Source: an uncultured Acidobacteriota bacterium (GTDB lineage: Bacteria > Acidobacteriota > Vicinamibacteria > Vicinamibacterales > CAVVIG01). From it: a DNA stretch of 64,000 nt. The stretch is from assembly GCA_963745495.1 (NCBI GenBank), contig CAVUXJ010000004.1:299985-363984 (forward strand), in the 5' to 3' direction. The notes below the pieces were generated by a model, which saw only the letters and a program-made list of their open reading frames with translations, had not been told where the DNA came from and did no database searches. This document shows positions 10,017 to 26,445 of the stretch, one piece after another. Position numbers and translations under genes: made by a program. The first letter of the stretch is position 1. Every line of letters begins with the position of its first letter.

Positions 10017-10063
10017 GACGGGTTTCAGGACTCAGCGCGCCGAGTGCGCGGTTGATACACAGC

Positions 10064-11415
10064 ATGGAGCAGTCGCCGACAAAGGACCGCGCCGTCAGCC
10101 TGGACGAGGCGATCTCGATCGCGATCCGGCTGCAGCAGAACGAGCAGTGGGCGGCTGCGGACGACATCTATCGCAGGATCCTCGAGGTCGCGCCCGACTA
10201 TCCCGACGCGCTGCACTTTTCCGGCGTGCTCGCGCATCAGCAGGGGCGAGAGCGACGAGGCCGTCGCGCTGATCGAGCGGAGCCTGGAGCTCGAGCCCGA
10301 TCGGGCGGACTGGCACAGCAATCTGGGCATCGTCCTGCGGGATCGCCTCAGGCTGGACGAGGCGATCGCCGCGTTTCAGCGCGCGATTGCGCTCGATCCG
10401 AATCACGCCAACGCGCACAGCAATCTCGGCGTCCTCCTGAGGGCGCAGGGCAAGCCGGTCGAAGCGGAAGCGGCCTATCGGGCCGCCATTCGCGTCAATC
10501 CCGAGCACTCGACGCGTACACCAACCTCGGCATCCTGCTGAACGGCCAGAAGCGGACGCACGAAGCGGTCGTCTGCTTCTGCAAGGTCATCACGCTCAGG
10601 CCGAAGCACCCCGAAGCGCGGCGACTGCTGGCGCTGGCGCACTGCACGCTCGGCGAGGTCGACAAGGCGGTGGAGATCTTCGAGGAATGGCTCAAGGAGG
10701 AGCCGGACCATCCGATCGCGCTGCACATGCTCGCGGCGTGCTCCGGCCGCGACGTCCCGGCGCGGGCGTCGGACGGGTTCGTCGAAAAGACCTTCGACAG
10801 CTTCGCCGCCAGCTTCGACTCCAAGCTCGCGAAGCTGTCGTACCGCGCCCCGGCGCTGGTCGCGGCGATGCTGGCGGACTCGGGTGTCGAGGCGTCGAAG
10901 AGCCTCGACGTGCTCGATGCCGGCTGCGGCACCGGGCTTGTGCGGACCGCTCGTCGCGCCGTATGCGCGCCGGCTGGTCGGGGTCGACCTGTCCGCGCGC
11001 ATGCTGGCTCAGGCCGAGGCGAGGAACGTCTACGACGAGCTGTTCAAGGTCGAGCTGACCGCCTACCTGCGCGACTACCCCGGGGCGTTCGACGTGATTG
11101 TGTCGGCCGACACCCTCGTGTATTTCGGACCGCTGGAGGACGTCGTCGCGGCGGCGGCGGACGCGCTGCGTCCCGGCGGACGGCTCATCTTCACCGTGGA
11201 GCAATTGATCGACGCCGGGTCCGATGCGGGCTATCGCCATCAGCCAGCACGGCCGCTACTGCCACTCGCGCGAGTACGTCGAGCGCGTGCTGGCGGACGC
11301 GAATCTGCGGCCGGAGATCGTGCCGGCGGAGCTGCGTCTCGAAGCCGGCGATCCGGTCGCGGGGCTGGTGGTGCGGGCGACGAAACCGACGGATGCAGGA
11401 ATGAACCATGCCTAG
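10064..11415 (+). CDS. TPR-repeat protein fused to a class I SAM-dependent methyltransferase domain, about 4 apparent frameshifts
   Basis: TPR units (WAAADDIYRRILEVAPDYPDALHFSGVLAHQQG, ADWHSNLGIVLRD..LDEAIAAFQRAIALDPNHANAHSNLGVLLRAQGK, AYTNLGILL). These are followed by SAM-binding motif I LDVLDAGCGTG and FDVIVSADTLVYFG, LRPGGRLIFTVE. Confidence 0.7.
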
Positions 11416-11420
11416 AGTCG

Positions 11421-13605
11421 ATGGAAATCGCCACGCCGCTCGGCGACGACGTGCTGCTGTTCCACGGCATGCACGCGCGCGAGGAGATGGGCCGGCTGGG
11501 CGAGTACCAGCTCGATCTGCTCAGCCTCGAAGAAGGACATCAACCTCGACGACATTCTCGGCAAGAACGTGACCGTGAAGCTCGCGCTGCCCGACGACAG
11601 CACGCGCTACTTCAACGGCTTCGTGACGCGCTTTTCGGCAGGGCGGCGAGCTACGGCCGCTATCACCGCTATTTCGCGGTCGTCCGCCCGTGGCTCTGGT
11701 TTCTGACGCGGACGACCGACTGCCGGATCTTCCAGGAGATGACCGTGCCGGACATCGTCAAGAAGGTGTTCGGCGATCGAGCCGACGGCCGATTTCAAGT
11801 TCGAGCTGACGGGCACCTACCGGAAGTGGACCTACTGCGTGCAGTACCGGGAGACCGACTTCAACTTCGTCAGCCGGCTGATGGAGGAGGAAGGCATCTC
11901 CTACTACGTCAAGCACACGGACGGCCACAACACGGTGGTGCTCACCGATTCCACGGGCAAGCACACGGCGACTCCCGGCTACGAAACGATCCCGTTCATC
12001 TCTCCCGAGCAGGTCGTGAGGCCGGAGCTCGAGCACATCAGCAGCTGGGACTTCTCGCGCGAGATCCAGCCGGGCGTCTACGTGCACGACGACTACGATC
12101 TCGAGCGGCCGAGCGTCGAGCTGCAAGACGCGGAAGGTGCTGCCGCGCAGCTACGCGCCGAGCGACTACGAGGTCTACGACTATCCCGGGCACTATCTGC
12201 AGAAGGCGGACGGCGAGCAGTACGCGGCGGTGCGCATCGACGAGCTCGGCAGCCAGTTCGAGACCGCGCAGGCGGTCACCAACGCCAAGGGGATCTGCGG
12301 TCGGATCGCTGTTCACGCTCGAGGACTGCCCGCGCGAGGATCAGAACCGCGAGCACCTGATTCTGGCGGCGAGCTACGACCTGGAGTTCAGCGACTACGA
12401 AGCGATGCCGGAGGGCGCCGGCACGAGCTACCGGTGCAGCTTCGTCGCGATGTCGAGCCAGCAGCAGTTCCGGCCGAGGCGCGCCACGCCCAAGCCGTTC
12501 GTGCAGGGGCCGCAGACCGCGGTGGTCGTCGGCCCGGCCGGCGACGAGATCTACACCGACAAGTACGGGCGCGTGAAGGTGCAGTTCCACTGGGATCGGT
12601 ACGGCAAGAAGGACGAGAACAGCTCGTGCTGGATCCGCGTGTCGCAGCCGTGGGCCGGCAAGGGCTGGGGCTCGGTCTCGACGCCGCGCATCGGCCAGGA
12701 GGTGATCGTCGATTTCCTCGAAGGCGATCCCGATCAGCCGATCATCACCGGCCGCGTGCTACAACGCCGAGAACCAGCCGCCGTTCGGGTTCCCGGCGGG
12801 CGCGGTGCTGAGCGGGGTCAAGTCGAACACGCACAAGGGCAGCGGCAACAACGAGCTGTCGATGGACGACACGGCCGGGAAGGAGAAGGTCATCATCCAC
12901 GGCCAGTACAACATGGACACGACAGTCGAGAACAATCAGACCAATTCGGTTGGCGTGGATCAGTCGAACAGCGTGGGTTCGAATCAGAAGGAGGATGTCG
13001 GCGCCAAACGAGAGATCAGCATCGGCGCCGACGACAAGGTGACGATCGGAGCGAACCGCGAAACCTCCATCGGCGCCAAGCACACGGTGTCGGTCGGTGG
13101 CGACGAGAAGGTGACTGTCAGCGGCAGCCGCGACGCGACAGTGGCAGGCAAGGAAGACGTGTCGATCAGCGGCAAGAGCAGCCTGCAGGTCGGGGCCAGC
13201 CGCACGGAAACAATAGCCGGCCCTCACACGATCGTGAATCCGCGGATGACAATCACGTCGGCCACACAGTTCACCGTTGCCGCCGGGGCGAACTTCACCG
13301 CAACGTCCCCCAAGGTCAACCTCCTGGCTGGTTCGACGTTCCTCGCGAACTCGGGCGGCAAGATGGACGTGAAATCGGCCGCAGGGCTCACCCAGCAATC
13401 GGGCGCGGCGATGAACATCAACGCCGGCGCGGCCCTCAACGCTCAATCGAAGGCCGCGATGAACCTGAAGTCGGGCGCCGCTTTAAAGGCACAGGCTGGT
13501 GGGGCGATGAACCTCAAAGCGGGGGGCACGATTACTGGAAAGGGATCGTCCATCAAGTTGAACTCGCCCACCAACATCAAGGGCACGACCCTTACCGTCA
13601 AATGA
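11421..13605 (+). CDS. vgrG: VgrG (TssI) spike protein, about 6-7 apparent frameshifts in the first 1.4 kb
   Basis: MEIATPLGDDVLLFHGMHAREEMGRLGEYQLDLLS, YFNGFVTRF, CVQYRETDFNFVSRLMEEEGISYYV, GRVKVQFHWDRYGKKDENSSCWIRVSQPWAGKGWG..PRIGQEVIVDFLEGDPDQPIITGRV, then a long gp5-like beta-helix repeat region ending in TLTVK. Confidence 0.9.
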
Positions 13606-15538
13606 AGGGTTTCACCCGCGACGACGTCATTGCGGCCTACCGTGCCGGAGCTCCACTCGATGGGCACATCCTGACCGATATTGTGCTGCGGAGCACCTCG
13701 CTACGCGGACTGAGGATGCGGGATACGGTCTGGCACCAGGTCGATCTGGCAGGGGCCGACCTGTCGGCGACGGATCTGTCTGGCGCTCGGTTTGTCGGGT
13801 GCAATCTACAGGGCGCGGTCCTTCAGCGTGCAACCCTGAAAGGGTGCCAGCTGCAGGAATGTGCGTGCGCCGCGACGAAATGGGAAGACGCGAGCCTCCG
13901 CGGTACGACGTTGGTCGGCTGTGCCTTCGACGATGCAGCTTTCACGAAGCTGCACCTCGAACAGTGTCATTGGTTGTCGTGCAGTTGTCAGGGTGCACAG
14001 TTCTCCGACAGCACGTTCATAGACGCCGTCTTCGAGGCGACGACGCTCGGTGACGTGCAGTTCGAACGATGCGCCATGCGTGGCGTGCGATTCGCGGACT
14101 GCGCGTTTCCCGGTACCTCGTTCGCAACGGTGCATCTGGACAGCAGTCGCTTCGACGGGTGCGCGTTCGACTCCGCCGGTTTTCGGCTTTGTACGGCGAC
14201 GAGCTGCGCGTTCGGAGACTGCCGGTTTGCCGAAGCCGATTTGTCAGGGCTTCACGGAGAGACTTCCACATTTTCCGGTTCCAGCTTCGTCGCCGTGAGA
14301 GCGCTGCCACAGGATCTCAGGGGAAACGTGTTTGGCGGCGTCGATCTCACCGGAGTTGATCTCTCAGGAAAAAACCTCGAGGGCGTGGATCTATCCGAGG
14401 CGGACCTGACGGAAGCGAGGCTCAACGGCGCGAACATGGAGGGGACCAACCTCTCGCCGCGTGCCTTGCTCGTGTTGACCTTTCGGATGCGAACTGCCGT
14501 CAGGCGATGATGGCAGACGCCAACCTGGATGGCGCGGTGCTCAGCAGCACGGACCTGAGCGGGGCGGTACTGGCGAACTCGACCCTTCCGATCTCCCGCC
14601 TCGCAGACGCGCTTCTGGTCGGAAGCGATCTCTCAGGAACTGATATGACGGGGGCGAAGCTGGTCGATCACGACCTGTCGGGGTGCCAGTTTGCCGGAGC
14701 CGTCGTGACGGACGCGGACCTGTCTGGAACCGACCTGAGGGATGCCGATTTCACAGACGCCAAGCTGCGAGGTGTGAATTGTTTCCGCGCGAAGTTTCGC
14801 GACGCGATCTTGTCCGGCGCAGATTGCACGAAGGCGAACTTTGCTGAGGCCCACTTCGCAAGCAGTTATCTGGACGGCGCTCTGTTAGCCGACGCCAACT
14901 TGCAGCAGGCGACGTTCGTGGAGACCGTCTTGGACGGTGTCGACCTGCGGACCGCCGCTTTTGGGAAGACCAGCTTTGAATCGTGCAGCGTGTCGGATGG
15001 CCGGCTGGATGGCGCGGATGTATCCGACTGCAGTTTTCTGGATAGTGATTTTTCGAGATGCAGCCTCGTCGGAGCTGTGCTGGACAGGGCGTCGTTGGCG
15101 GGTTGCGACTTCACGGGGGCTATGCTCACGGATGCGCACTTGAACAACGTGAAGGCACCCGCTGCGCGTTTCGTTGGTTGTCGGGCCGAACGTGCGATAT
15201 TTCGCCAGGCCGAGTTGCCGTCCGCGCAATTTATCGAGTCTCGTCTGGATGGAGCGGATTTTTCCGGCGCGGACCTTCGGCAAGCGATCTTCAGCGGAGC
15301 CGTCGCACGGCGCGCGCGATTCCGCGGATGTCGGCTCGACTACGCGCAAATCACGCATGCGAACATCGACCAGGCCGACTTCAGCGACGGTAATTTGTCG
15401 TGGACGGACTTCCACGGCACGCAGGGAACGCAGGTGAACTGGACCGGCGCCAGGCTCGATGATGTCCGCCCTGTCGATCCTGACCGCCTCGCAGCCGAGC
15501 AATGGAAAGCAGGAGAGCCCCCCACATGGAGTTCGTGA
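13602..15538 (+). CDS. Long pentapeptide-repeat protein. The ORF track splits it into 13602..14510 and 14507..15538; I read it as one gene with a 1-nt deletion near 14455.
   Basis: The start ATG overlaps the vgrG stop (ATGA). The A(D/N)LxG five-residue periodicity runs without a break across the junction only if the frame shifts at about 14455 (ANMEG TNLSA ACLAR VDLSD ANCRQ AMMAD ANLDG AVLSS). The frame-0 tail SPRALLVLTFRMRTAVRR loses the periodicity. Confidence 0.75.
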
Positions 15539-17740
15539 ATGAAAGTGGGCTGGAGGCGGCCTGGATCGTCGGCAAGATCAATCCACCGCGCTTCTCACTC
15601 ACTGCCATTGTCAAAGGTACGTTTCTCTTACGGCCTGGCGAAACGGCGATGCTCGCCGAAGAACAGCTCCCGCTGACGGGAGACAAGTTCGAGGCCGACG
15701 ACCTGTCCAAGCCTCTGCGCTACCCCGCGGATTTCGCGCCGTTCAAACCGCGTGCGGACGCGTTGCTCGTCGGGACCTGCCACGTGCCGGAAGGCAACCC
15801 CCTGACAGTCGCGCGAGTGACCTTTCAGATCGGGCCGCGGGCGAAGTCGCTAGTCGTGTACGGTGATCGTGAGTGGACGGCCGGGGGCCTCGCGACGGAT
15901 CCCGCGCCGTTTACTGTCCTTCCACTGTCGTGGGAACGAGCGTACGGCGGCGCGGCGTTCGAGCGAAACCCTTTGGGCAGGGGCTTCGAACTATCGGTTG
16001 GCGGGGCTGCAATCGACGGGCATCCACTACCCAACGTCGAATTCTCCGGCCGTCCATTGCGGTTGCCGGCCGACAGGGTGGAGCCTGCCGGATTCAATCC
16101 TATTCCTGACAGCTGGCCCCAGCGGGCGCAGAAGTTCGGAACCTTCGACGATCGATACCTGAAGGAGCGGTGGCCATGGGCACCCGGGAATATTGACTGG
16201 GGCTTTTTCAACGCTGCGCCGGTGGACCAGCAGATCGAAGGGTACCTCCGTGGCGATGAAGAGTTGTACATGGAGAATCTTCATCCGACGACGCAGCACT
16301 ACAGAAGCCGCCTGCCAGGGCTTCGAGTGCGCTGCTTCCTGAACGAGTTGGTTCGGGACCGCTACGGGTTGCGCGAAATCCCGATGCGCCTGGACACGTC
16401 GTGGGTCGACATGGATGCTGAGACGCTGGTGCTGGTCTGGCGCGGCGTTGTCGACCTGCGCAGCCGTAACCTCATCGGGATCGAGCATTTCTTCGTGCTC
16501 ACGGAGCCTCTGGAGCGGTTGCCTAACAACGTGAAGCAGTGTGCGCAGCTTCTGGAGGGGGCGCTCGCACGCCGCGAAATGCAGGACGACGAGCTCGAGG
16601 CAGAGGAACCGGAGGAGCTCGTGGACGCGGACGAAGCCCAGGACCAAGATGAAGAGCCCGCAGCGGAGTCGGCGTCTGCGTCACCCGCCGGTGATGGTGC
16701 AACCCTGAGCAGCGATGCGGCCTCTGACGCCGACCCTTCCAGCGATGCCGAGGCAAGTCTACCCGACGCAACTCCACCCGACGACGAGCCTTTGAACGCA
16801 ACGCCACTGGACGAAGCGCCGCTCACGGCGGAACGCGTGCGGGAACTGGCTGCCCAGCACGCGAGCTTCGCCGGCTGCGACCTGAGCGGTCTCGCGCTGG
16901 CCGGTGTCGACCTCAGAGGTCTGGATTTGCGGGAAGCGATACTGGTGAACGCGACCCTCGTGGGCGCGAATCTCTCCGGGGCCGACCTGACCGGATCTGT
17001 TCTCACCGGCGCGAACCTGCGAGGCGCCACCTGTACGGAAACAATCTTCGCCGCAGCCGACCTCACCGAAACGTGGTGGACCGGGGCCGATCTTTCCGCC
17101 GCGGTCCTCGTGGGCGCGAATCTCGACGAAGGCGAGGCTGCGGCTGGCCCGGATGGCTGGCGTGAAAGCGGCGGAAGCCGTCTTCGTCGAGGCGGACCTA
17201 TCGGACGCGATGTTAGTCGGCGCGAACCTCAGCGCGGCTGACTTGTCCGACGCCTGCCTCCACCGAACCGATTTTTCACGGGCCAATCTGTCGGAGGCTG
17301 CCCTCGAGAACGCGTGGGGCCGGCATGTCAGGGCATCGGCGCCACATTGATGAAGGTTCGCGGCGCAGAGGCGCTGATGTGCCAGGCCGACTTCCGGGAC
17401 AGCGCCGGCGACGAGTCGGTCTGGGAATCCGCTCAACTCTTCGGTGCGAGGTTCAGCGGCTCGAGACTGAATGGCGCGGAGTTCTCGGGTGCGTATCTCG
17501 CCAATACGCCCGTTCGACGCGTCGGAGTTGAAGGGCGCTCGTTTGAACGAAGCGAAACTCCGCGGTGCGCAGATGCGCCGGTGCAATTTTCTTGAGGCAT
17601 CGTTGGACGAAGCCGACCTGACGGACGCAACCTTCAGAGAGTCGAATCTTTTCGGAGCCACGCTCGTGGACGCGGTGCGCGACGGAACGCGCTTCACCGG
17701 TGCGAATCTGCGTCGGATCAAGAGCAGGGAGGACGCACAG
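15526..17740 (+). CDS. DUF2169-family protein with an acidic linker and a C-terminal pentapeptide-repeat domain, about 4 apparent frameshifts. The 3' end is not resolved.
   Basis: MEFVNESGLEAAWIVGKINPPRFSLTAIVKGTF...PLSWERAYGG...NPLG...WRGVVDL matches my memory of DUF2169. Next comes a D/E-rich linker, then repeats (CDLSGLALAGVDLRGLDLREAILVNATLVGANLSGADLTG...) followed through the frames of ORFs 15502, 17153, 17314 and 17471. Confidence 0.7.
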
Positions 17741-17744
17741 ACGA

Positions 17745-18290
17745 TCGTCGAGCCGTCAGGATACCTGGGGTCGGCCAGAGTGCTGGCGGCCGGCGACATC
17801 AGGTCATGTTCAGGTCGCGATGGCAGGCGACGGCGTCATGTGGGCGCGGATGGCGATGGCCGTGCCCTACAAGCCCGAGCCAGGAGACGAGGTGCTGGTG
17901 ATTTGCAACGAACCGCCCCATGCGTATGTCATTGGTGTTCTGCAGGGTCACGGCACAACGACGCTGCAGGTCCCCGCCGACCTGCGCTTCGAGGCCCCGC
18001 GAGGCGAGGTGCACATTCTCGCCGGCAAGGCCATCCAGATGCGGAGCGACAGTGGCGCTGGAGCTGGATGCGCCGCGCGGACGTTCCGATTCGTCTCGGC
18101 TGAACCTGCTGGTCACGACGCTCGTGCAGCGCCTGACCAACGCGTTCACCTGGGCAACAGGCCTCGTTCAGTGCAAGAGCGGGCGGTTGCGCGGATCGCC
18201 GAGGAAAGCTGGTTCGTGCGCGCGGGGCGCGCCCACGTGAGAACGACAGATAACATCCATATCACCGGAAAGACCCTTCACCTGGGGTGA
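17745..18290 (+). CDS. DUF3540-like protein, 2-3 apparent frameshifts; the start is uncertain
   Basis: YLGSARVLAAGD..VQVAMAGDGVMWARMAMAVPYKPEPGDEVLVICNEPPHAYVIGVLQG...HITGKTLHLG resembles the small proteins found between DUF2169 and DUF4150 genes in vgrG islands. The family assignment is from memory. Confidence 0.5.
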   Translation, partial: SSSRQDTWGRPECWRPATSGHVQVAMAGDGVMWARMAMAVPYKPEPGDEVLVICNEPPHAYVIGVLQGHGTTTLQVPADLRFEAPRGEVHILAGKAIQMRSDSGAGAGCAARTFRFVSAEPAGHDARAAPDQRVHLGNRPRSVQERAVARIAEESWFVRAGRAHVRTTDNIHITGKTLHLG

Positions 18291-18293
18291 GCC

Positions 18294-18672
18294 ATGTTCG
18301 AGGTTGCGAGCAACGTCTTCCGGCGGTCAGTGCCTTACCACGGGGCCGACCGATTTCTGCAAGACGCCGACTCCGGGCGGCCCGGTACCGATGCCGTACC
18401 CGAACATCGCGAAGACCGGCGACGGCCGGGGTTCGACGAAGGTGAAGGTCAAGTGCAAGCAGGCGCTGCGAAAGGGAGACAAGATCTTGATGTCTTCCGG
18501 CGACGAGGTGGGCGTGGCGATGGGCGCCGTTTCCAGCAAGATCAAGGGCCCCGCCGAGTTCATGTTGGGGTCGCCGTTCGTCAAGGTCGAGGGCAAGATG
18601 TGGGCCCATCACACGGTGCCGATGAAACAAAACGATGGGAATACGGTGGGCGTCCACATGGCCCCGTGTTGA
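18294..18672 (+). CDS. PAAR-like DUF4150 spike-tip protein. Either ATG 18294 plus a frameshift near 18322, or TTG 18304. The C-terminus may extend beyond 18672.
   Basis: GPTDFCKTPTPGGPVPMPYPNIAKTGDGRGSTKVKVKCKQALRKGDKILMSSGDEVGVAMGAVSSKIKGPAEFMLGSPFVKVEGKMWAHHTVPMKQNDGNTVG is the DUF4150 signature (CKTP.P.GP.P.PYPN ... SSGDE.G ... VK.EGK). Confidence 0.8.
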
Positions 18673-18702
18673 TGGTCGACCCTGACGTGAAACGGACCGA
18701 CA

Positions 18703-19314
18703 GTGGTCGTTAAAACGAAACCCGCTGCCAAGTCAGCCCGCGGATCGGCGGCTGCAAAGAAGGCGAAGGCTCGCAAGAAGAAAGCCGGAGGGGGGCGCCG
18801 GCCCAAGAAGCGCAAGGCTCCGAAGAAGCCGAGGAAGCAGAAGAAGAAGCACAAGTGTGGTGATAGCGGCAGCTATGGCCACATGAAAGATAACTACAAG
18901 GCCGATGGGAAAGAACGCGACCACGTTCCGTCGTGCGCAGCTCTCATCCACAATGCCAGGAACAATGTACTCCCCAGGGGCACAGAGCTCTGCCCCGCCC
19001 AGGAAAACGCCATCGTGCGAGCTGCGTCGGCCTGCGTCATTCCGAAACCCGTTCACGACAACTACAGTCCCACCCACTCGCACAAGAACAACGTAAAAGA
19101 CCCCCGTACAGGCAGGACACGAGCCCAAAGAGATGGCAACAACAAGAAGAAGGCCGCGAAACGAGATACGGACGCCATCAAGAAAGGCTTGAAAGACAAG
19201 AAGGCGAGCAAGCGGTGCCAGAAGAAGTACGCCGCCTGGGCCGAGAAAATCAAGGAACGGGATCAGAGCTGGTACGAAGGAATGATTAAGAAGGCGGTAA
19301 ACAAGGCAACGTGA
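18703..19314 (+). CDS. Highly basic (Lys/Arg-rich) putative T6SS toxin with an H-N-H/EndoVII-like motif. It may be the detached C-terminal domain of the PAAR-like protein.
   Basis: GTG start 31 nt after the PAAR stop, in the same frame. About 50 N-terminal residues are AKKAKARKKKAGGGRRPKKRKAPKKPRKQKKKHK-type. The core ERDHVPSCAALIHNARNN...ACVIPKPVHDNYSPTHSH resembles the HH-x2-P ... V-x-P-K-x-H ... H layout of colicin-type DNases. This is motif-level evidence only. Confidence 0.55.
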   Translation: MVVKTKPAAKSARGSAAAKKAKARKKKAGGGRRPKKRKAPKKPRKQKKKHKCGDSGSYGHMKDNYKADGKERDHVPSCAALIHNARNNVLPRGTELCPAQENAIVRAASACVIPKPVHDNYSPTHSHKNNVKDPRTGRTRAQRDGNNKKKAAKRDTDAIKKGLKDKKASKRCQKKYAAWAEKIKERDQSWYEGMIKKAVNKAT

Positions 19315-19338
19315 GGAATCGAGCGGAGCTGTGGTGAC

Positions 19339-19815
19339 ATGAGCGGCAATGAATTCATCACATTACTCGGATTGACCTGGGACGATGACGAGGTGCAGCG
19401 ATTTCTCGCGAAGTATGGCCTTGCGAAGAAGAAACCGAAGCTCAGCCCGTACAGCGGCGCCGGTTATCTTACGAACAAGAGGTTGGGCTTGGACATTACG
19501 TTCAGGGATGAGCAGGATGTCCCGGTGAAGTCAAAGGACTACGACGAGGGCACCCTTGTCCTGACGAACATCCGCATGTACGGTGAAGGAAGCACCCAGG
19601 GGTATGAACCGTTCGACGGCGAATTTCCCCATGGACTGAAAGGGAATTTCGGACTGAAGGAAGTCCAGGCTCGCCTCGGCAAACCCGCAGAGGCGAAGAA
19701 AGACGTCGCAATGGCGCGGTGGGACCTCAAGGGTCACGCGGTGTTCATCAACTTCGATAAGGACCATAAGCTGATCCGTTCGGCTGCGGTTCAGTTGCCG
19801 GTGGCCGCCAAGTAA
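19339..19815 (+). CDS. Hypothetical cytoplasmic protein, candidate immunity protein (module copy 1)
   Basis: Intact 158-aa ORF, 25 nt after the putative toxin, with no signal peptide. It shares a module with the next gene (FITLLGLTWDDDEVQRFL ... GLDITF ... GEFPHGLKGNFGLKEVQARLGKP ... HAVFINF). Confidence 0.6.
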   Translation: MSGNEFITLLGLTWDDDEVQRFLAKYGLAKKKPKLSPYSGAGYLTNKRLGLDITFRDEQDVPVKSKDYDEGTLVLTNIRMYGEGSTQGYEPFDGEFPHGLKGNFGLKEVQARLGKPAEAKKDVAMARWDLKGHAVFINFDKDHKLIRSAAVQLPVAAK

Positions 19816-19846
19816 GCCGTGTCATTCATCTTTGTGAAGGATTAGC

Positions 19847-20855
19847 GTGGCTGTGGATGCCGATCGACTTCTTCCTCTGTTGGGCCGCCGGAGCGACGAG
19901 CCGGAGGTGGAGGCCGCCTTCGTCGAATTGCGAACACGCCGGCGGCCGGAGCTGGATCCGGAGGATCCCGACGCGCTTCGCGACTGGGTCCTGGTGCGAC
20001 GGCAAGGGGTTGAGCTGGGGTTCATCGACGAGGCGTACTTCAACGCAGACAAGGAATGGAAACGTCGCCGGGAATTGACCGCGTTGCTCTTGTATCAGGT
20101 GTATTTCTACACGGCGGACGCGGAGCTACAAATAACGCAGTTCACGGGCAGGCTGCCATTTGGTCTCGAATGGTCGGACGATCGAAAGGAAGTGAGGCGG
20201 AAGCTTCAATCGTATGAACCGTTCCGTCGCTCGTACCGGCGGGATGCGTGGCAGCTGCCGCAGTTCGCGATATCGGTCACCTACAAGAACGCAAACCGGG
20301 CCGTGGACAGCGTCATATGTCAGAGCGACCTCAAGCCATGGCCTGAAGAGGGCCGGGCGCAACCTGCCCTGTCGGTAAGGGGACTGGGTCGAGATCCTGG
20401 GGCTTCCGGCAACCTCGGCTGACCTCCGCCGGCGGATTCAACCGCTCGACCTCGCTAACAGAATCGCGGACGATGAGGATGACGAGGAGGTCAACTTCCG
20501 ATACGAGTGCGGAGTGGAGCTGGTGTTTACGGAGGCGAGCAATTTGAAAGGTGCTTACCGGACGCGGCTGGGACGAAGAGTCCGGACACTCTCGTGCTTG
20601 GTGCCGTTCGGTTCTTTCGTTCGCGGGGCCTTGACGCCAGGCAATGGACTGGGGAGTTGCCGTTCGGGCTGGCGTTCGACGACAGCCAGCGCGCCGCGCA
20701 GGTCGAAGATCCGGCGCAAACCTGACGAGCATAAAGACGAGGGTTTGGACGGGTACCTCGAGTGGCGCTTTCCGGAGTACAGCCTTCATGTTCTATACGA
20801 CAACATGAAGAATCGCCTGCTTCGGATTACGATCATGGCTCCCGGGTTCGATTAG
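19847..20855 (+). CDS. Hypothetical protein made of two further copies of the same ~160-aa module, about 3 apparent frameshifts
   Basis: Copy 2: LLPLLGRRSDEPEVEAAF...GVELGF...FTGRLPFGLEWSDDRKEVRRKL...FAISVTY. Copy 3 runs through the frames of ORFs 20514 and 20507: WVEILGLPATSADLRR...GVELVF...WTGELPFGLAFDDSQRAAQV...YSLHVLYDNMKNRLLRITIMAP. Confidence 0.5.
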
Positions 20856-20872
20856 TTGCGTGGCCCGGACCT

Positions 20873-22292
20873 ATGAGGATCTCCGAGGCGCAATACTACG
20901 AGCTCATCGACGCAGTCGTTCGAGAGGGTGACCCCACACTCATCGTTGCACCTCTCTCGAGCACACCGGCCGAGGTGCCGGCCGGCTGGGCGCAACTCCT
21001 GACTTCTCCCGATCCCCGCGCCGCCATCGCCACACTGTGGCGGCCGGTGGCGGATCGTGTCCCTCGTATCTACCGCGGCTTGCAGGAGCGGCTCCACGGC
21101 GTCGGCTTGTTGCGTACCGACGAAATACCAGCAAGCCTGCTCTACTTCTTCAGCGACGGCGACGAATGGATTCCTTTCCGGGGACGTCCGCCGCTCGAGG
21201 AACGCGCGCTCCGACGGAGCCCCCTGCCCAAGGAATTTCTCGAGTTCTACCGAATCCATGACGGCTGGGTTCACCACCATTCCGAAGACAGCGGGCCGCT
21301 GCCGAGCGCTGGATGGTCTCCCGTGTCGACGTTGTGGAGCGAGGTCGTCTGGAAAGTGCCCCCGGGCGAAGAATCGTACGAGACGGCGATCGCCGTGTAC
21401 CGCGACAGCGACGATTTCGCGCTCGCGTACGACACGTCCGCTTCGCCCGCGTTGCCCTTGCGATGTTATGGCGACGGCACCGTGGACGTGCTGTTGGACA
21501 TGTGGGCGGCCGTCGACCGTGAGATTGGTGAGCTTCTCGAAGAGCTCGACTGGAGCGCGACTGCGAGCGGACGACGCGGCCGCTTTCGCGCGGATGCGTC
21601 GAGCACACATGTCTCTCGCTACCAGGAACTGATCGCACGGGCGGCCGAGTGTCACACGCTTGCCGCGCACCTGGGTGGCGGTAGCGCCGACGAGCAAGCT
21701 GCTGATCTTCTCCTGAATTGCGCGCGCCTTGAGAGGGAAGGCGCCGGCGACCGCGACAAGATCGTCGGTTACTACGGTCAGGCGCTGCGGCACTGGTGCG
21801 CGAGCATCGATCTGAGGTGGCGATGCAGGCCCGGAAGAGGTGCTGGACTGGTTCGGCGTCGCTCACGCATTGGGCGATGCACCAACCGCCCACTTCATAG
21901 CGGCTCTACCGACCTCGATCTGGGCCGACGACTCACCAGAGGCATTACAGGCCCGCACGCTGTTCTGTCTGTACCTCGGGGATGTCGAGAACGCGTCAGC
22001 GTTTGTCGAGGAGCTCCTGGGTGTGACCTTCGACGGCGAGTCGGCGCCTGAACCAGAGGCCGAGATCACCGCCTCGCTGCTCCAGGGGCTGAGCCAGAAG
22101 GATGCTGCGGCATACGCGCGGTGGCGGAAGCGAGCGGTTGACGAGCTCTGTGAGGGCAGCACGAATCAGAGGGCATTGCTTCCCTGGACTCTGAGACTGC
22201 GCGGCTTTGATGCAGTGGCTTCAAGACTCGGAATCGAAGGTCGTTCCTCGTCTCATGGGATTCCCACGAAACTGGCTCCACCTGATTCGTAA
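20873..22292 (+). CDS. SUKH (SMI1/KNR4)-domain protein with a helical C-terminal extension, one apparent frameshift near 21820
   Basis: LPKEFLEFYRIHDGWVHH ... AIAVYRDSDDFALAYD ... DMWAAVDREIGELLEEL is SMI1/KNR4-like. The C-terminal part is ORF 21840..22292. Confidence 0.6.
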
Positions 22293-22317
22293 CATTGCCC
22301 AAAACGGGGGTATCGCG

Positions 22318-22944
22318 ATGGGAAATGGCAAGTCACCGTCCGGCATCGACCTCGACACGCCGGGCCCGATCGACGACGGGACATTGGCGCGTATCGGGTC
22401 GCCTGAGCCGGGGCCGATCGGGCTCGACTCGAAAGGCGGCGACGCGAAGCAGAGCCAGCCGAGCATGGCCGATCGGATCGTGAGCTACGCGCGCCGGAAG
22501 CGCGGCGAGCGCGTCGGCGACGGCGAATGCTACACGCTGGTCAATCGCGCGCTGAGCGCCGCGAACGCCAAGACCGCCAGGGACTACGGCCCGGTCTCGC
22601 CTGACGCAGATTACATCTGGGGAACATCGGTCGCACTGACCGAGCTGCAGCCGGGCGACGTGATTCAGTTCCGCGACTACACGTTCAAGCGGGTGGACGT
22701 CACCGACGATGACTCTGGCACGACGACTGACGAGCAGGAGGGAGACCGCCCGCACCACACCGCCATCGTCCAGAGCGTGGACGGCAACGGCGCGGTCACG
22801 GTCTGGGAGCAGAACGCCCCCGATGGCTCTCCGGTCACGCGCACGCAACTGTTCTTCACCTCCCGAAGGACCACGAGCGGCAACCGCACCACGACGATCA
22901 CGGTGCGGGGAACGTTCTGGTTTTACCGTCCCGAGGCTCGCTGA
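22318..22944 (+). CDS. CHAP/NlpC-P60-type papain-fold hydrolase without a signal peptide; candidate T6SS amidase-type effector
   Basis: Start MGNGKSPSG preceded by a GGGGG RBS-like run. Candidate Cys nucleophile in VGDGECYTLVNRAL. Candidate His in GDVIQFRD...RPHHTAIVQSVDGNGAVTVWEQN, the CHAP-like GHVAIV...EQN pattern. The first ~50 aa are Gly/Pro/Asp-rich. Confidence 0.7.
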   Translation: MGNGKSPSGIDLDTPGPIDDGTLARIGSPEPGPIGLDSKGGDAKQSQPSMADRIVSYARRKRGERVGDGECYTLVNRALSAANAKTARDYGPVSPDADYIWGTSVALTELQPGDVIQFRDYTFKRVDVTDDDSGTTTDEQEGDRPHHTAIVQSVDGNGAVTVWEQNAPDGSPVTRTQLFFTSRRTTSGNRTTTITVRGTFWFYRPEAR

Positions 22945-23010: not shown

Positions 23011-23797
23011 CTAGACGAGCTCAGGCGCCTGCTGACGTGCAATCTCGAGCAGGCGGCCCTTCAAGGGATCGCCCAGCGCGGCGATGTCCTCGACCTTGAC
23101 GACCTCCTCGAAGACGTCCATCCCGGTCAACTCGGCGCTCTCGATCATGACCGCGTCGGAGGGACGCTCCGTCGTGATCCCGATTCCAATGCGGGTGATC
23201 GGGAGCTCGCCGAACTGCGGGGACTTGCTGGTGGTCAACGGAAAGTGCAGCGCCTCGAACACCTGCATCAGCCCCGGCTCGCTCTTGGTGGCCAGATGCA
23301 TGACCAGATAGTTGAGCACGAACCGCTGAAGCTCCTCGACCGATCGCGCCTTGGCGTCCAGCAGCTCCTGCAGACGGGTGGGCGGAAAGTCGGTGTAGGT
23401 CAGCACCCACGTCAGCGGGCATCGCACCTTGATCCTTCTGCGTGTCCGCGCCCGACTGCGCGACATGGTAGTAGTCGAGCGGCGTGATCTCGAGGCCGAC
23501 GCTGGTAAAGCTCAACGGAGGGGCCAGCTCGCGCGCGAGGTTGTATGGTCTGGCCGTCGCCACCGTTTCGTAGAGCGCCTGCAGATCGCCGAAGGCCTTG
23601 TCCGATTTGCGGCTCGGTTCCTTCGGGCCGCCTTGCACGTAGTCTCCGAGCACCGCCTTCGGCCGCAAGAGCGGTGTCAGCGTCTTCAGGTACTCCGTCA
23701 TCTGCACTCGCACGGCGTCGGTGATGGCGCGAGTCAGTTTCCTGAGCACCAGGAGCGACTGCACGTTGTCGCGTCCGTTCATGTGTGAAGGCTCCAT
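23011..23797 (-). CDS. Hypothetical protein of unrecognised family, one apparent frameshift near 23430
   Basis: ORFs 23021..23827 (N-terminal part MEPSHMNGRDNVQSLLVLRKLTRAITDAV...LEITPLDYYHVAQSG) and 23011..23466 (C-terminal part KVRCPLTWVLTYTDFPPTRLQELL...LLEIARQQ) join into about 260 aa. Divergent from the kinase gene. Confidence 0.5.
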
Positions 23798-24005
23798 AGG
23801 GGGTAGCGTGCCACCCGGGGAGGGCACCGTGCTTCAAAGACCCGGCACAGACTATCGGCCGGCTGGCAGGCTTGTCAACGCACGCAGCCGGAACCGGAGG
23901 ACCGGCTCCGTGCGGCGGCCTCCCAGTGTCGCGACTGTAACGCGGGCGGCCTTTGGCGCACTATATTCAGATCCCGACGTGCTAGGATTCTTGAAATTCC
24001 TGTCA

Positions 24006-26445
24006 ATGCTGCCCCTTCCGTCCCGGATCAGCCGTTACGACATCAAGAGCCTCATCGGGACCGGGGGCATGGGCACCCTGTATCTTGCCAGGGACACCAA
24101 CCCGAACACGAACCGGCTCGTCGCCCTCAAGCTCCTCAATGCCAACCTGGACTCCGGCGACCTTCGAGAGCGATTCGCCCGTGAGGCCCGCGCCCTTGCC
24201 GCGCTGAACCACCCCAACATCGTCAACATCTACGACTCGGGCGAGTTCCAGGGTTCGCCGTTCATCGTGATGGAGTACGTCCGGGGCGAGACGCTCTCAG
24301 AGAAGATCAAGCGAAAGGCTCCGCTGTCGCTCGGACAGAAGCTCAAGCTGATGGGAGAGCTGTGCGCGGGACTCGGACATGCCCACGAGGCGGGCATGAT
24401 CCACCGCGACATCAAGCCGGCCAATCTGATGGTCGATCAGCACGGCCGGCTGAAGGTTCTCGACTTCGGCATCGCCCGCGTCTCGGAAGGCAGCTTTACG
24501 CGAGCGGGCCTGCAGGTCACTCAGTTCAACGTGCGGATCGGCACGCCCGGTTACATGTCTCCGGAACAGATAGAGACCGGCGAAATCGACCGGCGCAGCG
24601 ACATTTTTGCCGTTGGCGCGGTGTTCTACGAGCTGCTCTCGAACAGTGAAGCGTTTTCGGGCGCCAGCACGCGACAGATCGAAAACAAGGTACTGCAGGC
24701 GCAGCCTGCTCCTCTCACGTCGCTCGTTCCCGGCCTCGATCCAGAGATTGCCGCCATCGTCGCCCGCGCGCTGGAGAAAGATCCCGCCAGACGGTATCAG
24801 GATGCCGCGGCGATGGAGGAAGCGCTCGAGCAGCAACTGTGGCGTCTGGGCCGCCAGGACACTCCTGCACCGACTGAGCGTCCGACGCCACCGCCGCAGA
24901 GCGCCGGACGCAAGTCCCGAGACTCACGAGCGGACGTGGCGTTTCAGCGCTCGGCTGCATTCTATCGAGAGGGGGCGGTCGAGGCCGCCCGGCGGTTCGC
25001 GATTGAAGCGCTCGCCGAAGATCCGAATCACGAAGGCGCTTACACGTTCCTTGAACGGCTTGAACGCCAGGAACCGGATCGGTGGCCGATCCCGCGACCG
25101 TCGCTCCCCCCGCCGGCGCCGGGGACCGAGCTCAGAACAGCTATGGAGCCGCCCGCGCGGCAGCTGACGCCGGTGCCGCCAACCATCGTCAGCCCGCGCA
25201 GGGATTCTGGCGGCGTCTTCTTCGGCGAAGCGATCGCGGGAACCAAGGCGATGGCGACGAGCTATGGAGCCGCCACCGCAAGGCCGCGCTGGTCGCGGCC
25301 GTCGTCGCCGTCGCCGCCGGCATTGCGCTCGTCGTCATGCGCCTGCTCGGTGGCCCGGTGGTTTCCGGCCAGTTGCTCACCATTACGAAGCCGACCGGGG
25401 GGACGATTACCAGCCGCGGCATCAACTGCGGCACGACGGGGTCTGACTGCTCGACCACGCTTCCGAGTGGTGAGCCCGTCGAGCTCCAGACCCACGCTGA
25501 TGCGGGATTCATGTTCACCGGCTACACCGGCGACTGTCTCTCGACCGGCCGAACCCTCATGACATCGCCGAGAACCTGCGGCGGAACGTTTGCTCCCCTT
25601 CCTGATGTGCCTGCACAGGTGCCTCGTCTGCTGACCGTCACTCGGCCGAAGGGCGGCACGATTTTGAGTGCCGGCATTCAGTGCGGCACGCTCGGCTCTG
25701 ATTGTTCCGCGACCCACCCGGACGGAGAACAGGTCACGCTGTACGCGCGGGCAGACGAGGGCTTCACCTTCCAGGGCTTCACGGGGGAATGCGGCGCGAA
25801 GGGCCAGCTGCTCATGAGCGCTCCCCGCACGTGCGGCGCGACGTTCGCCCCCCGAGCCGTCCTCGACGCCGCCCAACAGCGCCCCGCAAGTCCCGCAGCT
25901 CCGGGTCCGGGGCGGCCGCCATCCGGAGGAGGGCGGGACGACGCGAGTCCGCCCCCTCCGGAGAACTTTACGTCTGCTCCCGCGCCTCCTTCCGAGCCGG
26001 CTGGCTCGGGCTGCCGCTGCCGGCGGCGGTTTTGAACGACCAACTAGGTTTCCCCGGTGCGACGCCTGCGCCGGCACCCCCGATTGCGCCGGAGGTCGTC
26101 GTGAAGACCAACGTCGACAGACTTCTCAAGGAGTACTGCTCCGCCTATGAGCAGCTCGACGTGCCGGGTATCATGCGAGTGTTCCCGACGGCGCCAGCCG
26201 CCGGGCTGAGGGACCAGTTCAGACAGTACAAGACGGCGGGGTGCGCGTTGATGGGGGCTCCGGAGTTCGTCTCGATGGACCCGCAGGCTGGGATTGCGAC
26301 GGTTGAAGTTGGCGTCAAGCTGACGGCGGAACTGAAGGTCGGGAGCGCGAAACCGCAGGAGACCATCGCCGTCGTGAGGGTGGTCCGGCCGGAGCCGAGA
26401 GGCCTGTGGCATATCGATAGCATGAGGTTTCGGCCTAAGAAATAG
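24006..26445 (+). CDS. Membrane Ser/Thr protein kinase with an extracytoplasmic tandem InlB-B-repeat-like pair and a C-terminal NTF2/SnoaL-like domain, 2 apparent frameshifts (about 25230 and 25990)
   Basis: Hanks kinase motifs GTGGMGTLYLA, VALK, HRDIKPANLMV, DFGIA, GTPGYMSPE. TM segment ALVAAVVAVAAGIALVVM. Two repeats LT(I/V)T(K/R)P.GGTI.S.GI.CG..GSDCS. C-terminal LLKEYCSAYEQLDVPGIMRVFP. Confidence 0.85.

Follow-up and report, generated by a model that had tools for sequence, protein, structure and literature searches.

Predicted TsiN-type immunity modules beside a TseN-family DNase gene in an uncultured Acidobacteriota bacterium: a likely cognate inhibitor and a conserved double-module companion

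What do three related protein modules, encoded directly downstream of a putative toxin gene in an uncultured Acidobacteriota bacterium, do for their host? The window, by which we mean the whole stretch of 64,000 nucleotides that was analysed, encodes these homologous modules of ~160 amino acids (aa) at positions 19339–19815 (M1, a single-module gene) and 19847–20855 (M2+M3, a double-module gene). A preliminary description, made from the nucleotide letters and their translations, had taken both genes for immunity genes of a polymorphic toxin locus and had left the module itself without a family. Our analysis suggests that the region is likely to form the immunity half of an effector–immunity cassette of the TseN/TsiN type, which belongs to a type VI secretion system (T6SS). 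In this cassette M1 would be the cognate immunity protein, the double-module product would be a second, broader inhibitor, and the indels that interrupt its gene would be sequence errors.

The three modules, their fold and the toxin upstream

Homology among the three modules is apparent at several levels. The four sequence blocks that had been listed in the preliminary description are present in each of M1, M2 and M3 in three-frame translation. When the window sequences alone were aligned by Smith–Waterman and compared with 1000 shuffles, the z-scores were 12.5 for M1/M2, 12.1 for M2/M3 and 4.9 for M1/M3. Two-sequence BLASTP gave E values of 5e-8 for M1/M2, 2e-6 for M2/M3 and 0.08 for M1/M3, the last pair being 18% identical. 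We also compared family alignments made up of seven M1 homologues (A1), 27 N-terminal halves of double-module proteins (A2) and 27 C-terminal halves (A3). With hhalign every pair aligned over the full length: the M1 family with the N-halves at 99.2% (E 3.5e-19), the M1 family with the C-halves at 98.0% (E 2.3e-13), and the N- with the C-halves at 98.8% (E 7.8e-17). Taken by itself, the weak BLASTP match between M1 and M3 could be read as a sign that the threefold similarity is due to chance or low complexity and that the frame-corrected second gene has been over-interpreted. This reading is ruled out by the shuffles, by hhalign E values of 1e-13 to 1e-19, by the 93 intact full-length homologues of the double-module protein and by its high-confidence two-domain structure model (see below), and the probability left to it is negligible.

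It is understandable that the modules could not be classified before, because direct scans give nothing significant. In Pfam and NCBIfam, the three modules produced only sub-threshold, non-significant matches (Ish1 and DUF2808 for M1), and a PADLOC scan of M1, the toxin, TsiN and P0009, the closest intact homologue of the double-module protein, likewise returned nothing significant. No signal peptide was seen, by eye alone, in the N-termini MSGNEF... and VAVDAD....

Structure comparison places the module in a family. M1 (19339–19815, + strand) is an intact single module of 158 aa, and its AlphaFold2 (AF2) model has a mean per-residue confidence (pLDDT) of 84.5. The best PDB match of this model in Foldseek is chain 9j9w_A, TsiN (E 8.3e-8), with a template modelling (TM) score of 0.74 normalised to TsiN and ~19% identity over 160 aligned columns (158-residue target). 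The next matches, two SCP-domain proteins, are far weaker (E 3.4e-4 and above). TsiN is known from Acidovorax (Paracidovorax) citrulli, where it confers immunity to the T6SS DNase TseN (PDB 9J9W; PLoS Pathog, October 2025; PMC12574953), and it neutralises TseN in E. coli and in yeast. The module can therefore no longer be called unassignable, as the TsiN family comes with a solved structure and, in the same paper (PMC12574953), a neutralisation assay.

Profile searches lead to the same family. An exhaustive HMMER search with the M1 profile collected 399 cluster representatives at E ≤ 0.001; most are single-module proteins of 145–170 aa, and doubles and a small number of triples also occur. When 119 of these relatives were made into a profile (A6), it matched TsiN in the PDB with E 1.6e-14 (profile positions 4–157 against TsiN 2–148), and the match stayed at E 1.4e-11 after removal of the 24 members nearest TsiN. 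The N-module profile A2 matched one PDB chain, again 9j9w_A, over its full length (E 0.001). Moreover, the alpha/beta fold of TsiN, with helices on a seven-stranded antiparallel sheet, is found in the predicted structures of both M1 and the double-module protein.

The neighbour on the 5′ side fits this assignment. By sequence, the gene at 18703–19314 (+ strand; 203 aa), previously described as a putative toxin, is a TseN-family DNase toxin, with a Lys/Arg-rich tail at residues 1–51 and a DNase domain at ~48–191. Residues 48–191 match TseN (9j9w_B) in a single-sequence phmmer search (E 6.4e-5), and a profile of 12 toxins from related loci reaches E values of 4e-19 to 8e-20 against TseN. A multiple alignment places His118 (codon 19054–19056, + strand) opposite the catalytic His254 of TseN, and this histidine is invariant across the 12 locus toxins and TseN within the motif (A/C)IPxxxH. 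The TseN study reports that the H254A substitution abolishes toxicity and DNase activity (PMC12574953). The N-terminus of A. citrulli TseN has a basic nucleolar localisation signal and a FIX motif. In the window toxin, K or R accounts for 25 of the first 51 residues (18703–18855), and in the 12-toxin alignment with TseN it lacks the FIX-type segment of the longer homologues. The basic tail might serve in localisation, as in TseN, or in loading or DNA binding.

The published TseN locus runs VgrG5, DUF2169 (Aave_2128), PAAR5, TseN, TsiN (PMC12574953). The window repeats this order, as do a syntenic JGI contig, Burkholderia ubonensis and 10 of 14 loci from species-representative genomes (see below). 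Because M1 shows TsiN-family homology and a TsiN-like predicted fold, has a TseN-family toxin gene upstream and lies in a matching gene order, it is most likely the cognate TsiN-type immunity protein of the toxin. The earlier view of these genes as immunity-type genes of a polymorphic-toxin locus, here of T6SS type, is thus upheld for M1 by its position and modelled fold. By analogy with the 9J9W complex, M1 would bind the DNase domain 1:1 in the cytoplasm of the producer. In the 2.6 Å TseN–TsiN complex, the TsiN loop between alpha2 and beta1 lies over the catalytic pocket with His254 (PMC12574953). Opposite this loop, in the AF2 model and in profile alignments, are M1 residues 25–40 (KYGLAKKKPKLSPYSG; 19411–19458, + strand), which connect helix 2 (residues 17–24) with strand 1 (41–46). 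The two loops may be equivalent, and in that case the M1 loop (residues ~25–40) would block the catalytic pocket of the toxin. Profile alignments also reveal a basic-basic-Pro motif within the loop, KKRP in TsiN, KKKP in M1 and RRRP in M2; the corresponding stretch of M3 is acidic (DDEDDEE).

A few observations concern the wider family. The representatives found with the M1 profile include the three-module proteins P0253 (513 aa) and P0101 (541 aa). Another, P0127 (677 aa), reads as a TseN-like DNase fused to modules and may be either a frameshift run-through or a genuine toxin–immunity fusion; it was set aside as a false lead because it has the look of a toxin gene read through into modules. 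Two longer hits with five to six matching stretches, P0226 (1388 aa) and P0247 (1874 aa), are Gram-positive repeat surface proteins and not poly-module immunity proteins. BamE (Pfam) is matched by seven of the 119 A6 relatives (best E 9e-8), and A6 profile positions ~100–153 weakly touch the BamE-like/BLIP-like PDB chains 2pxg and 3d4e, so the C-terminal half of the module may share a BamE/BLIP-type fold.

The double-module protein and its proposed role

The second gene opens with GTG at 19847 and requires three frame changes to reach its stop at 20853–20855, which gives a product of ~335 aa. Its two-module structure had been regarded as a reconstruction in need of about three frame corrections. 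It is now borne out by 93 database homologues, nearly all of them 315–350 aa long at ~99% coverage, and by the location of three 1-bp indels. Named sources of these homologues include Burkholderia ubonensis, Thauera and a Candidatus Manganitrophaceae metagenome-assembled genome (MAG). The closest intact homologue, P0009 (333 aa), is 75% identical to the corrected protein over its full length.

All parts of the gene are on the + strand. M2, the N-terminal TsiN-like module together with the linker, reads in one frame at 19847–20377 (E 1.1e-69 to the hidden Markov model (HMM) of N-halves; P0009 residues 1–175 in tblastn). M3, the C-terminal TsiN-like module, occupies 20379–20855 (P0009 residues 176–333), ends with the stop codon TAG and contains two of the indels; the HMM of C-halves matches both of its fragments (E 1.5e-17 and 3.4e-21). 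The first indel, one extra base (gta-a-ggg) at 20378, falls on the M2/M3 junction, and its removal yields ...SV-GDW..., to be compared with ...TV-GDW... in P0009. The second, at 20580–20581, is a base missing from a codon (RR-[gt_]-PDTLVLGAV) where P0009 has RRPPETLVLGAV; the repaired reading, RRxPDTLVLGAV, is that of the intact homologues. The third is an extra base (cag-g[t]cg-aag) at 20703, accurate to ~1 nt, and without this t the translation is QAKIRRK, the same as in P0009. All three were placed with tblastn and P0009. Programmed frameshifting can be dismissed, since the three shifts do not share one sign and no homologue is interrupted.

The AlphaFold model of the double-module protein is of high confidence (pLDDT 96.6; predicted TM score, pTM, 0.92), and TsiN alone matches it in the PDB at E ≤ 0.001 (E 6.8e-8; TM 0.74 normalised to TsiN). 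The protein would thus be a single polypeptide in which two TsiN folds pack against each other to form a rigid pseudo-dimer. Pfam returned no significant match for any of the 88 doubles, nor for the TsiN relatives and locus singles that were scanned.

How regularly does such a gene accompany a TseN-type toxin? A scan of species-representative genomes, with a query made from the alignment subset that shares DWVLVRRxG, returned 14 loci (L003–L016), which we annotated with our own HMMs. Wherever upstream DNA exists, the order VgrG, DUF2169, PAAR-like protein, TseN-like toxin, single(s), double recurs; it was seen in a Nitrospirota MAG and in Myxococcales, Solibacteraceae, Burkholderiaceae, Roseateles, Chitinolyticbacter and Moraxella, as well as in B. 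ubonensis and in a syntenic JGI contig in which all genes are intact. The shorter order toxin, single(s), double is present in the window, in the JGI contig, in L002, in 10 of the 14 genome loci and in L017–L020. The neighbourhood survey proposed in the preliminary description thus does reveal linkage of the homologues to VgrG, PAAR-like and toxin genes. Overall, a double follows a single in TseN-type cassettes of Nitrospirota, Myxococcota, Acidobacteriota and Pseudomonadota, at almost every locus examined. For the type TseN loci we used those of Paracidovorax avenae and Xanthomonas campestris, which stand in for A. citrulli. In these, TseN and TsiN are followed by a second TsiN paralogue and a 370/376-aa protein, the C-half of which matches the C-module HMM (E 1e-15 to 1e-16); its N-half is colinear but weak. 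We found no description of a tandem-TsiN double-module gene in the searchable literature, and the searched part of the TseN paper (PMC12574953) makes no mention of the protein.

At four loci a single+double pair occurs with no TseN-like gene within 10 kb (L007 9503–10963, L012 9989–12544, L013 9270–10933 and L015 9491–10993). Upstream of the pair, L007, L012 and L013 have housekeeping genes (thioesterases, an AraC regulator, DUF480, an Exo_endo_phos nuclease) and L015 has a Fic protein and an unannotated open reading frame (ORF). The L012 locus does carry a VgrG gene downstream.

Some loci are more elaborate. Two complete tandem cassettes, each with PAAR-like protein, toxin, single and double, lie in a Solibacteraceae MAG (L005 1759–7433). 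Arrays of extra singles and doubles are found in Roseateles (L008 11186–16684; L012 11516–12544 and 18923–19977); the L008 array holds a truncated TseN-like fragment (13864–14616), and its repeating unit is the single+double pair.

The cassette genes differ in how fast they change. Over 55 locus pairs, median identity is 44% for the toxin DNase domain, 36% for the double and 26% for the single, and in 47 of these pairs the double outscores the single per residue. When the tandem cassettes of L005 are compared with each other, identity is 69% for the toxins, 30% for the singles and 93% for the doubles. Across nine loci, similarity of the toxin correlates with that of the double (rho 0.67) and of the single (rho 0.47), with the proviso that pairs are not independent; for toxin or double against the DUF2169 gene rho is ~0 to 0.2. 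We read toxin, single and double as one mobile unit, distinct from the genes for delivery. The doubles are acidic throughout (median isoelectric point (pI) 5.3, n = 88), and the toxin domains are basic (pI 8–10).

We infer that the double binds the toxin because it is acidic, its divergence tracks that of the toxin, it stays nearly unchanged when toxin and single diverge, and it is kept in toxin-less islands. The single would be the fast-evolving, allele-specific partner of the toxin. The double would bind a more conserved surface of TseN-type DNases and offer broader, less allele-specific protection. That it serves as a second inhibitor of TseN-type DNases with broader specificity is at best an even proposition. 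More tentative is the general form of this idea, namely that TseN cassettes are three-part systems in which a fast-evolving TsiN is complemented by a conserved tandem-TsiN pseudo-dimer, a generalist inhibitor that covers many toxin alleles, including those of competitors. If true, it would explain why the double travels with the cassette over four phyla and why it is retained beside a single in toxin-less genomes.

Might the double instead be an accessory factor, such as a chaperone or stabiliser that keeps the basic DNase until it is loaded, or else a spike adaptor? Its conservation exceeds that of the cognate-type single, there is one per cassette, and a pTM of 0.92 suggests a rigid two-lobed scaffold. 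In addition, the A. citrulli study states that TsiN alone protects E. coli and yeast and that the gene after tsiN gave no protection (PMC12574953). On the other hand, the four genomes with single+double pairs and no nearby TseN-like toxin, three of them with housekeeping genes upstream (one of these, L012, with VgrG downstream), show a persistence that is typical for orphan immunity genes and would be pointless for a loading factor. A gene useful without the toxin therefore points to a protective, toxin-binding role rather than to loading. Moreover, both halves of the double are predicted to keep the TsiN fold, the N-module retains the basic-Pro motif of the loop that in TsiN lies over the active site, and similarity of the double does not track that of DUF2169. 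An accessory role is thus improbable.

A second alternative is that M2+M3 is an orphan or variant immunity gene, left behind by displaced cassettes and aimed at the toxins of other strains. Arrays of extra singles and doubles, one with a truncated toxin fragment (L008 13864–14616) and a similar one in L012, have the appearance of such remnants, and toxin-less islands exist. However, orphan arrays vary in content, whereas here the order toxin, single(s), one double recurs over four phyla; no other immunity-type gene of the cassette changes as slowly as the double; and where arrays occur, their repeating unit is the single+double pair and not the double by itself. We consider this origin very improbable. 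The proposal of the preliminary description, a cognate immunity gene plus orphan or variant ones, accordingly survives in its first half, for M1. Its second half does not hold for the double, which is a fixed syntenic partner of the single and is better conserved than it. A broader second inhibitor thus remains our preferred role for the double.

Frame changes, delivery genes and a recombination boundary

The toxin and its presumed inhibitors belong to a compact series of genes on the + strand: a PAAR-like gene (18304–18672), the toxin (18703–19314), M1 (19339–19815) and the GTG ORF from 19847. M1 starts 24 nt past the toxin stop, and M2+M3 31 nt past the M1 stop. Further upstream are a VgrG gene (11634–13599), a pentapeptide-repeat gene (13614–15532) between VgrG and DUF2169, a DUF2169 gene (15502–17728) whose C-terminus is fused to pentapeptide repeats (16700–17730), and, after it, a DUF3540 gene (17808–18287). 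The arrangement of pentapeptide-repeat protein, DUF2169 fusion and DUF3540 also occurs in the Nitrospirota MAG locus (L003) and the JGI contig, and not in the proteobacterial loci. The PAAR-like protein is a spike-tip protein of the DUF4150/'PIPY' type (122 aa; Pfam PF13665 Tox-PAAR-like, E 1.3e-27). With its L003 orthologue it shares 86% identity, and it contains PVPMPYP, taken by eye for the PIPY motif of PMC11883445, the paper that sets out the DUF2169/PIPY logic. TseN delivery requires VgrG5, the DUF2169 protein Aave_2128 and the PAAR-like protein PAAR5 (PMC12574953). The window toxin would load on the VgrG/DUF2169/PAAR-like spike encoded just upstream.

On the 3′ side, directly after the double-module gene, lies a conserved protein of 466–470 aa with no Pfam match (20873–22235), which is also found in L003 (11021–12421) and the JGI contig. 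Next, at 22207–22944, comes a protein whose fold is that of an AIM3/BBC1-CHAP cysteine peptidase (E 4e-15) and which may be a further effector.

Are the three indels in the double-module gene real? Frame changes were counted by tblastn guided by the proteins of the short-read Nitrospirota MAG (L003). The window has at least four in VgrG, one in the pentapeptide-repeat gene, one in the DUF2169 gene, three in the double-module gene and one in the downstream 466-aa gene, and none in the PAAR-like gene, the toxin or M1. This amounts to ten over ~10.6 kb, or ~1 per kb across neighbouring genes (window ~9300–22300). In a related ENA contig, L001, most of the breaks fall elsewhere, two of them in its own PAAR-like gene, and one VgrG frame change sits at the identical position in both sequences. 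Gaps in the window–L001 alignment are dominated by single bases (173 of 184 are 1 bp). Because of the rate of ~1 per kb in neighbouring genes, the different positions in L001 and the prevalence of 1-bp gaps, the three 1-bp indels are probably errors of a long-read metagenome consensus rather than signs of pseudogenisation. They say little about the biology of the double-module gene. Outside the T6SS region, a coarse plot of G+C content at third codon positions over the whole window hints at further frame changes (e.g. at ~47900–48100), and a kinase ORF at 23721–25562 seems, by eye, to be out of frame near its 3′ end.

It could be argued, nevertheless, that the double of this genome is a true pseudogene, an unneeded immunity paralogue in decay beside a functional M1. 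Three independent frame-breaking indels fall within 1 kb, the PAAR-like gene, toxin and M1 alongside have none, and a 1.4-kb block of perfect identity with L001 shows that part of the stretch was assembled accurately. Yet the corrected protein remains 75% identical to P0009 over its full length, with no internal stop and no larger deletion. VgrG (at least four times), the pentapeptide-repeat protein, DUF2169 and the 466-aa gene are frameshifted as well, L001 is mostly broken elsewhere, including twice in its PAAR-like gene, and 1-bp gaps dominate the alignment. Such a pattern suits consensus errors better than the parallel decay of a whole T6SS locus, so that a pseudogene is unlikely and consensus error is the explanation we retain.

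The identical block itself (18649–20046) corresponds to L001 9311–10708, a contig otherwise 70–95% identical to the window. From a point eight codons short of the 3′ end of the PAAR-like gene, it spans the toxin, M1 and the initial 200 nt of M2 and reaches the end of the L001 contig, so its true 3′ limit is beyond the reach of L001. The last differences before it (18606–18648) affect mostly every third base of the PAAR-like gene, and the switch is abrupt. Judged from the nucleotide alignment, 18649–20046 looks like a toxin–immunity cassette recently exchanged by recombination.

Several points weigh against the overall reading of the region and have to be set beside it. The sequence homology of M1 and TsiN runs through intermediates and the direct link, at ~19% identity, is weak; the seven-sequence A1 profile gave no significant match to 9j9w_A (E = 1). 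M1 has a calculated pI of 8.7, as does one single of the Solibacteraceae locus (L005b), and ~19% of the single-module relatives are basic. DNase inhibitors are usually acidic, unlike M1. M1 is thus basic, unlike most of its relatives, and its presumed target is itself very basic (pI ~10). The perfect identity with L001 over 1.4 kb means that indel errors are not uniform, which leaves the artefact reading unproven, and three indels in 1 kb lie towards the top of the rate seen locally. Linkage by itself can make toxin and double co-vary, and the locus pairs do not count as independent. Finally, the A. citrulli study tried only TsiN and the next downstream gene, Aave_2132, and reports that TsiN alone neutralised TseN and that Aave_2132 did not (PMC12574953). 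If Aave_2132 is the double-module gene, this would argue against a simple immunity role; by the gene order of P. avenae, it is more likely to be the second single paralogue.

Comparison with known effector–immunity systems

The closest known system is TseN–TsiN itself. The window shares with it a DNase domain with a catalytic His, the immunity fold and family, and the order VgrG, DUF2169, PAAR-like protein, toxin, immunity gene; the type loci moreover have extra TsiN paralogues and a divergent double-module gene downstream. The sequences, however, are very distant (~19% identity between M1 and TsiN, ~30% between the toxin DNase domains). The window toxin, at 203 aa, is short; in place of a FIX-type segment it has a Lys/Arg-rich tail of 51 aa. 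M1 differs from TsiN in being basic. The host belongs to a different lineage, and the closest relatives of the locus are metagenomic contigs, the nearest named ones being Nitrospirota. M1 and the toxin are distant members added to an effector–immunity family that was experimentally defined only in 2025, a useful annotation rather than a surprise. The family is of interest in its own right, as TseN kills fungi.

In Pfam, the nearest family is PF19929 (DUF6392; CdiI_5 in the newer release), which is matched by 19 of the 119 single-module relatives at E ≤ 0.01 (best 1.6e-7). M1 homologues match it weakly over the GxLPxGL region, with a best score of 14.3 bits against a gathering threshold of 25.9 bits; in precomputed tables the match is 'faint' for M1 and 'weak' for its JGI orthologue. 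At E ≤ 1, there is no match for M1, M2 or M3; among doubles 0 of 88 match, and among the TsiN relatives scanned 0 of 5, including a P. avenae protein 99% identical to TsiN. Our search found no paper describing the function of PF19929. On sequence grounds it appears to be a neighbouring family in the same superfamily, of which the window modules are at best outlying relatives.

A precedent for dual immunity to one T6SS DNase is provided by Tde5/Tdi5a/Tdi5b of the Pseudomonas aeruginosa H4-T6SS, where two immunity genes come after that of the DNase (J Biol Chem 2026, PMC13392607). Of the two immunity proteins, one occurs only in the context of the toxin; the other is widely distributed and binds a different surface, and a ternary complex forms. 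Dual immunity was found to be rare for Tde5 (PMC13392607). We use this system as a working analogy only. Homology is ruled out by the published descriptions, as Tde5 has another nuclease fold, beta-beta-alpha-Me, and Tdi5a is an all-helical, HEAT-like immunity protein, so that the families are unrelated. In the window and its relatives, by contrast, the immunity-type genes are paralogues of a single fold and their pairing is the rule.

Polymorphic toxin systems (Rhs, contact-dependent inhibition and T6SS) can carry poly-immunity and orphan immunity arrays downstream of their toxins. The loci described here resemble these in their tandem immunity paralogues after a toxin, their toxin-less islands and their arrays with toxin fragments. 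What is new is the conserved tandem-TsiN gene only, the 'unclassified' status of the module having been superseded by the 2025 work on TsiN and TseN. The double, which duplicates an immunity fold within one protein and forms a constant third member of the cassette, deserves specialist attention. A broad-spectrum double, if true, would be a case of natural generalist immunity beside a specific one, and would bear on resistance to T6SS attack by non-kin and on how new toxin–immunity alleles arise without self-killing. Compared with the known poly-immunity and orphan arrays, the double stands apart in three respects: its presence in the cassette is fixed, it joins two modules in one chain, and its rate of evolution is below that of the cognate-type gene next to it.

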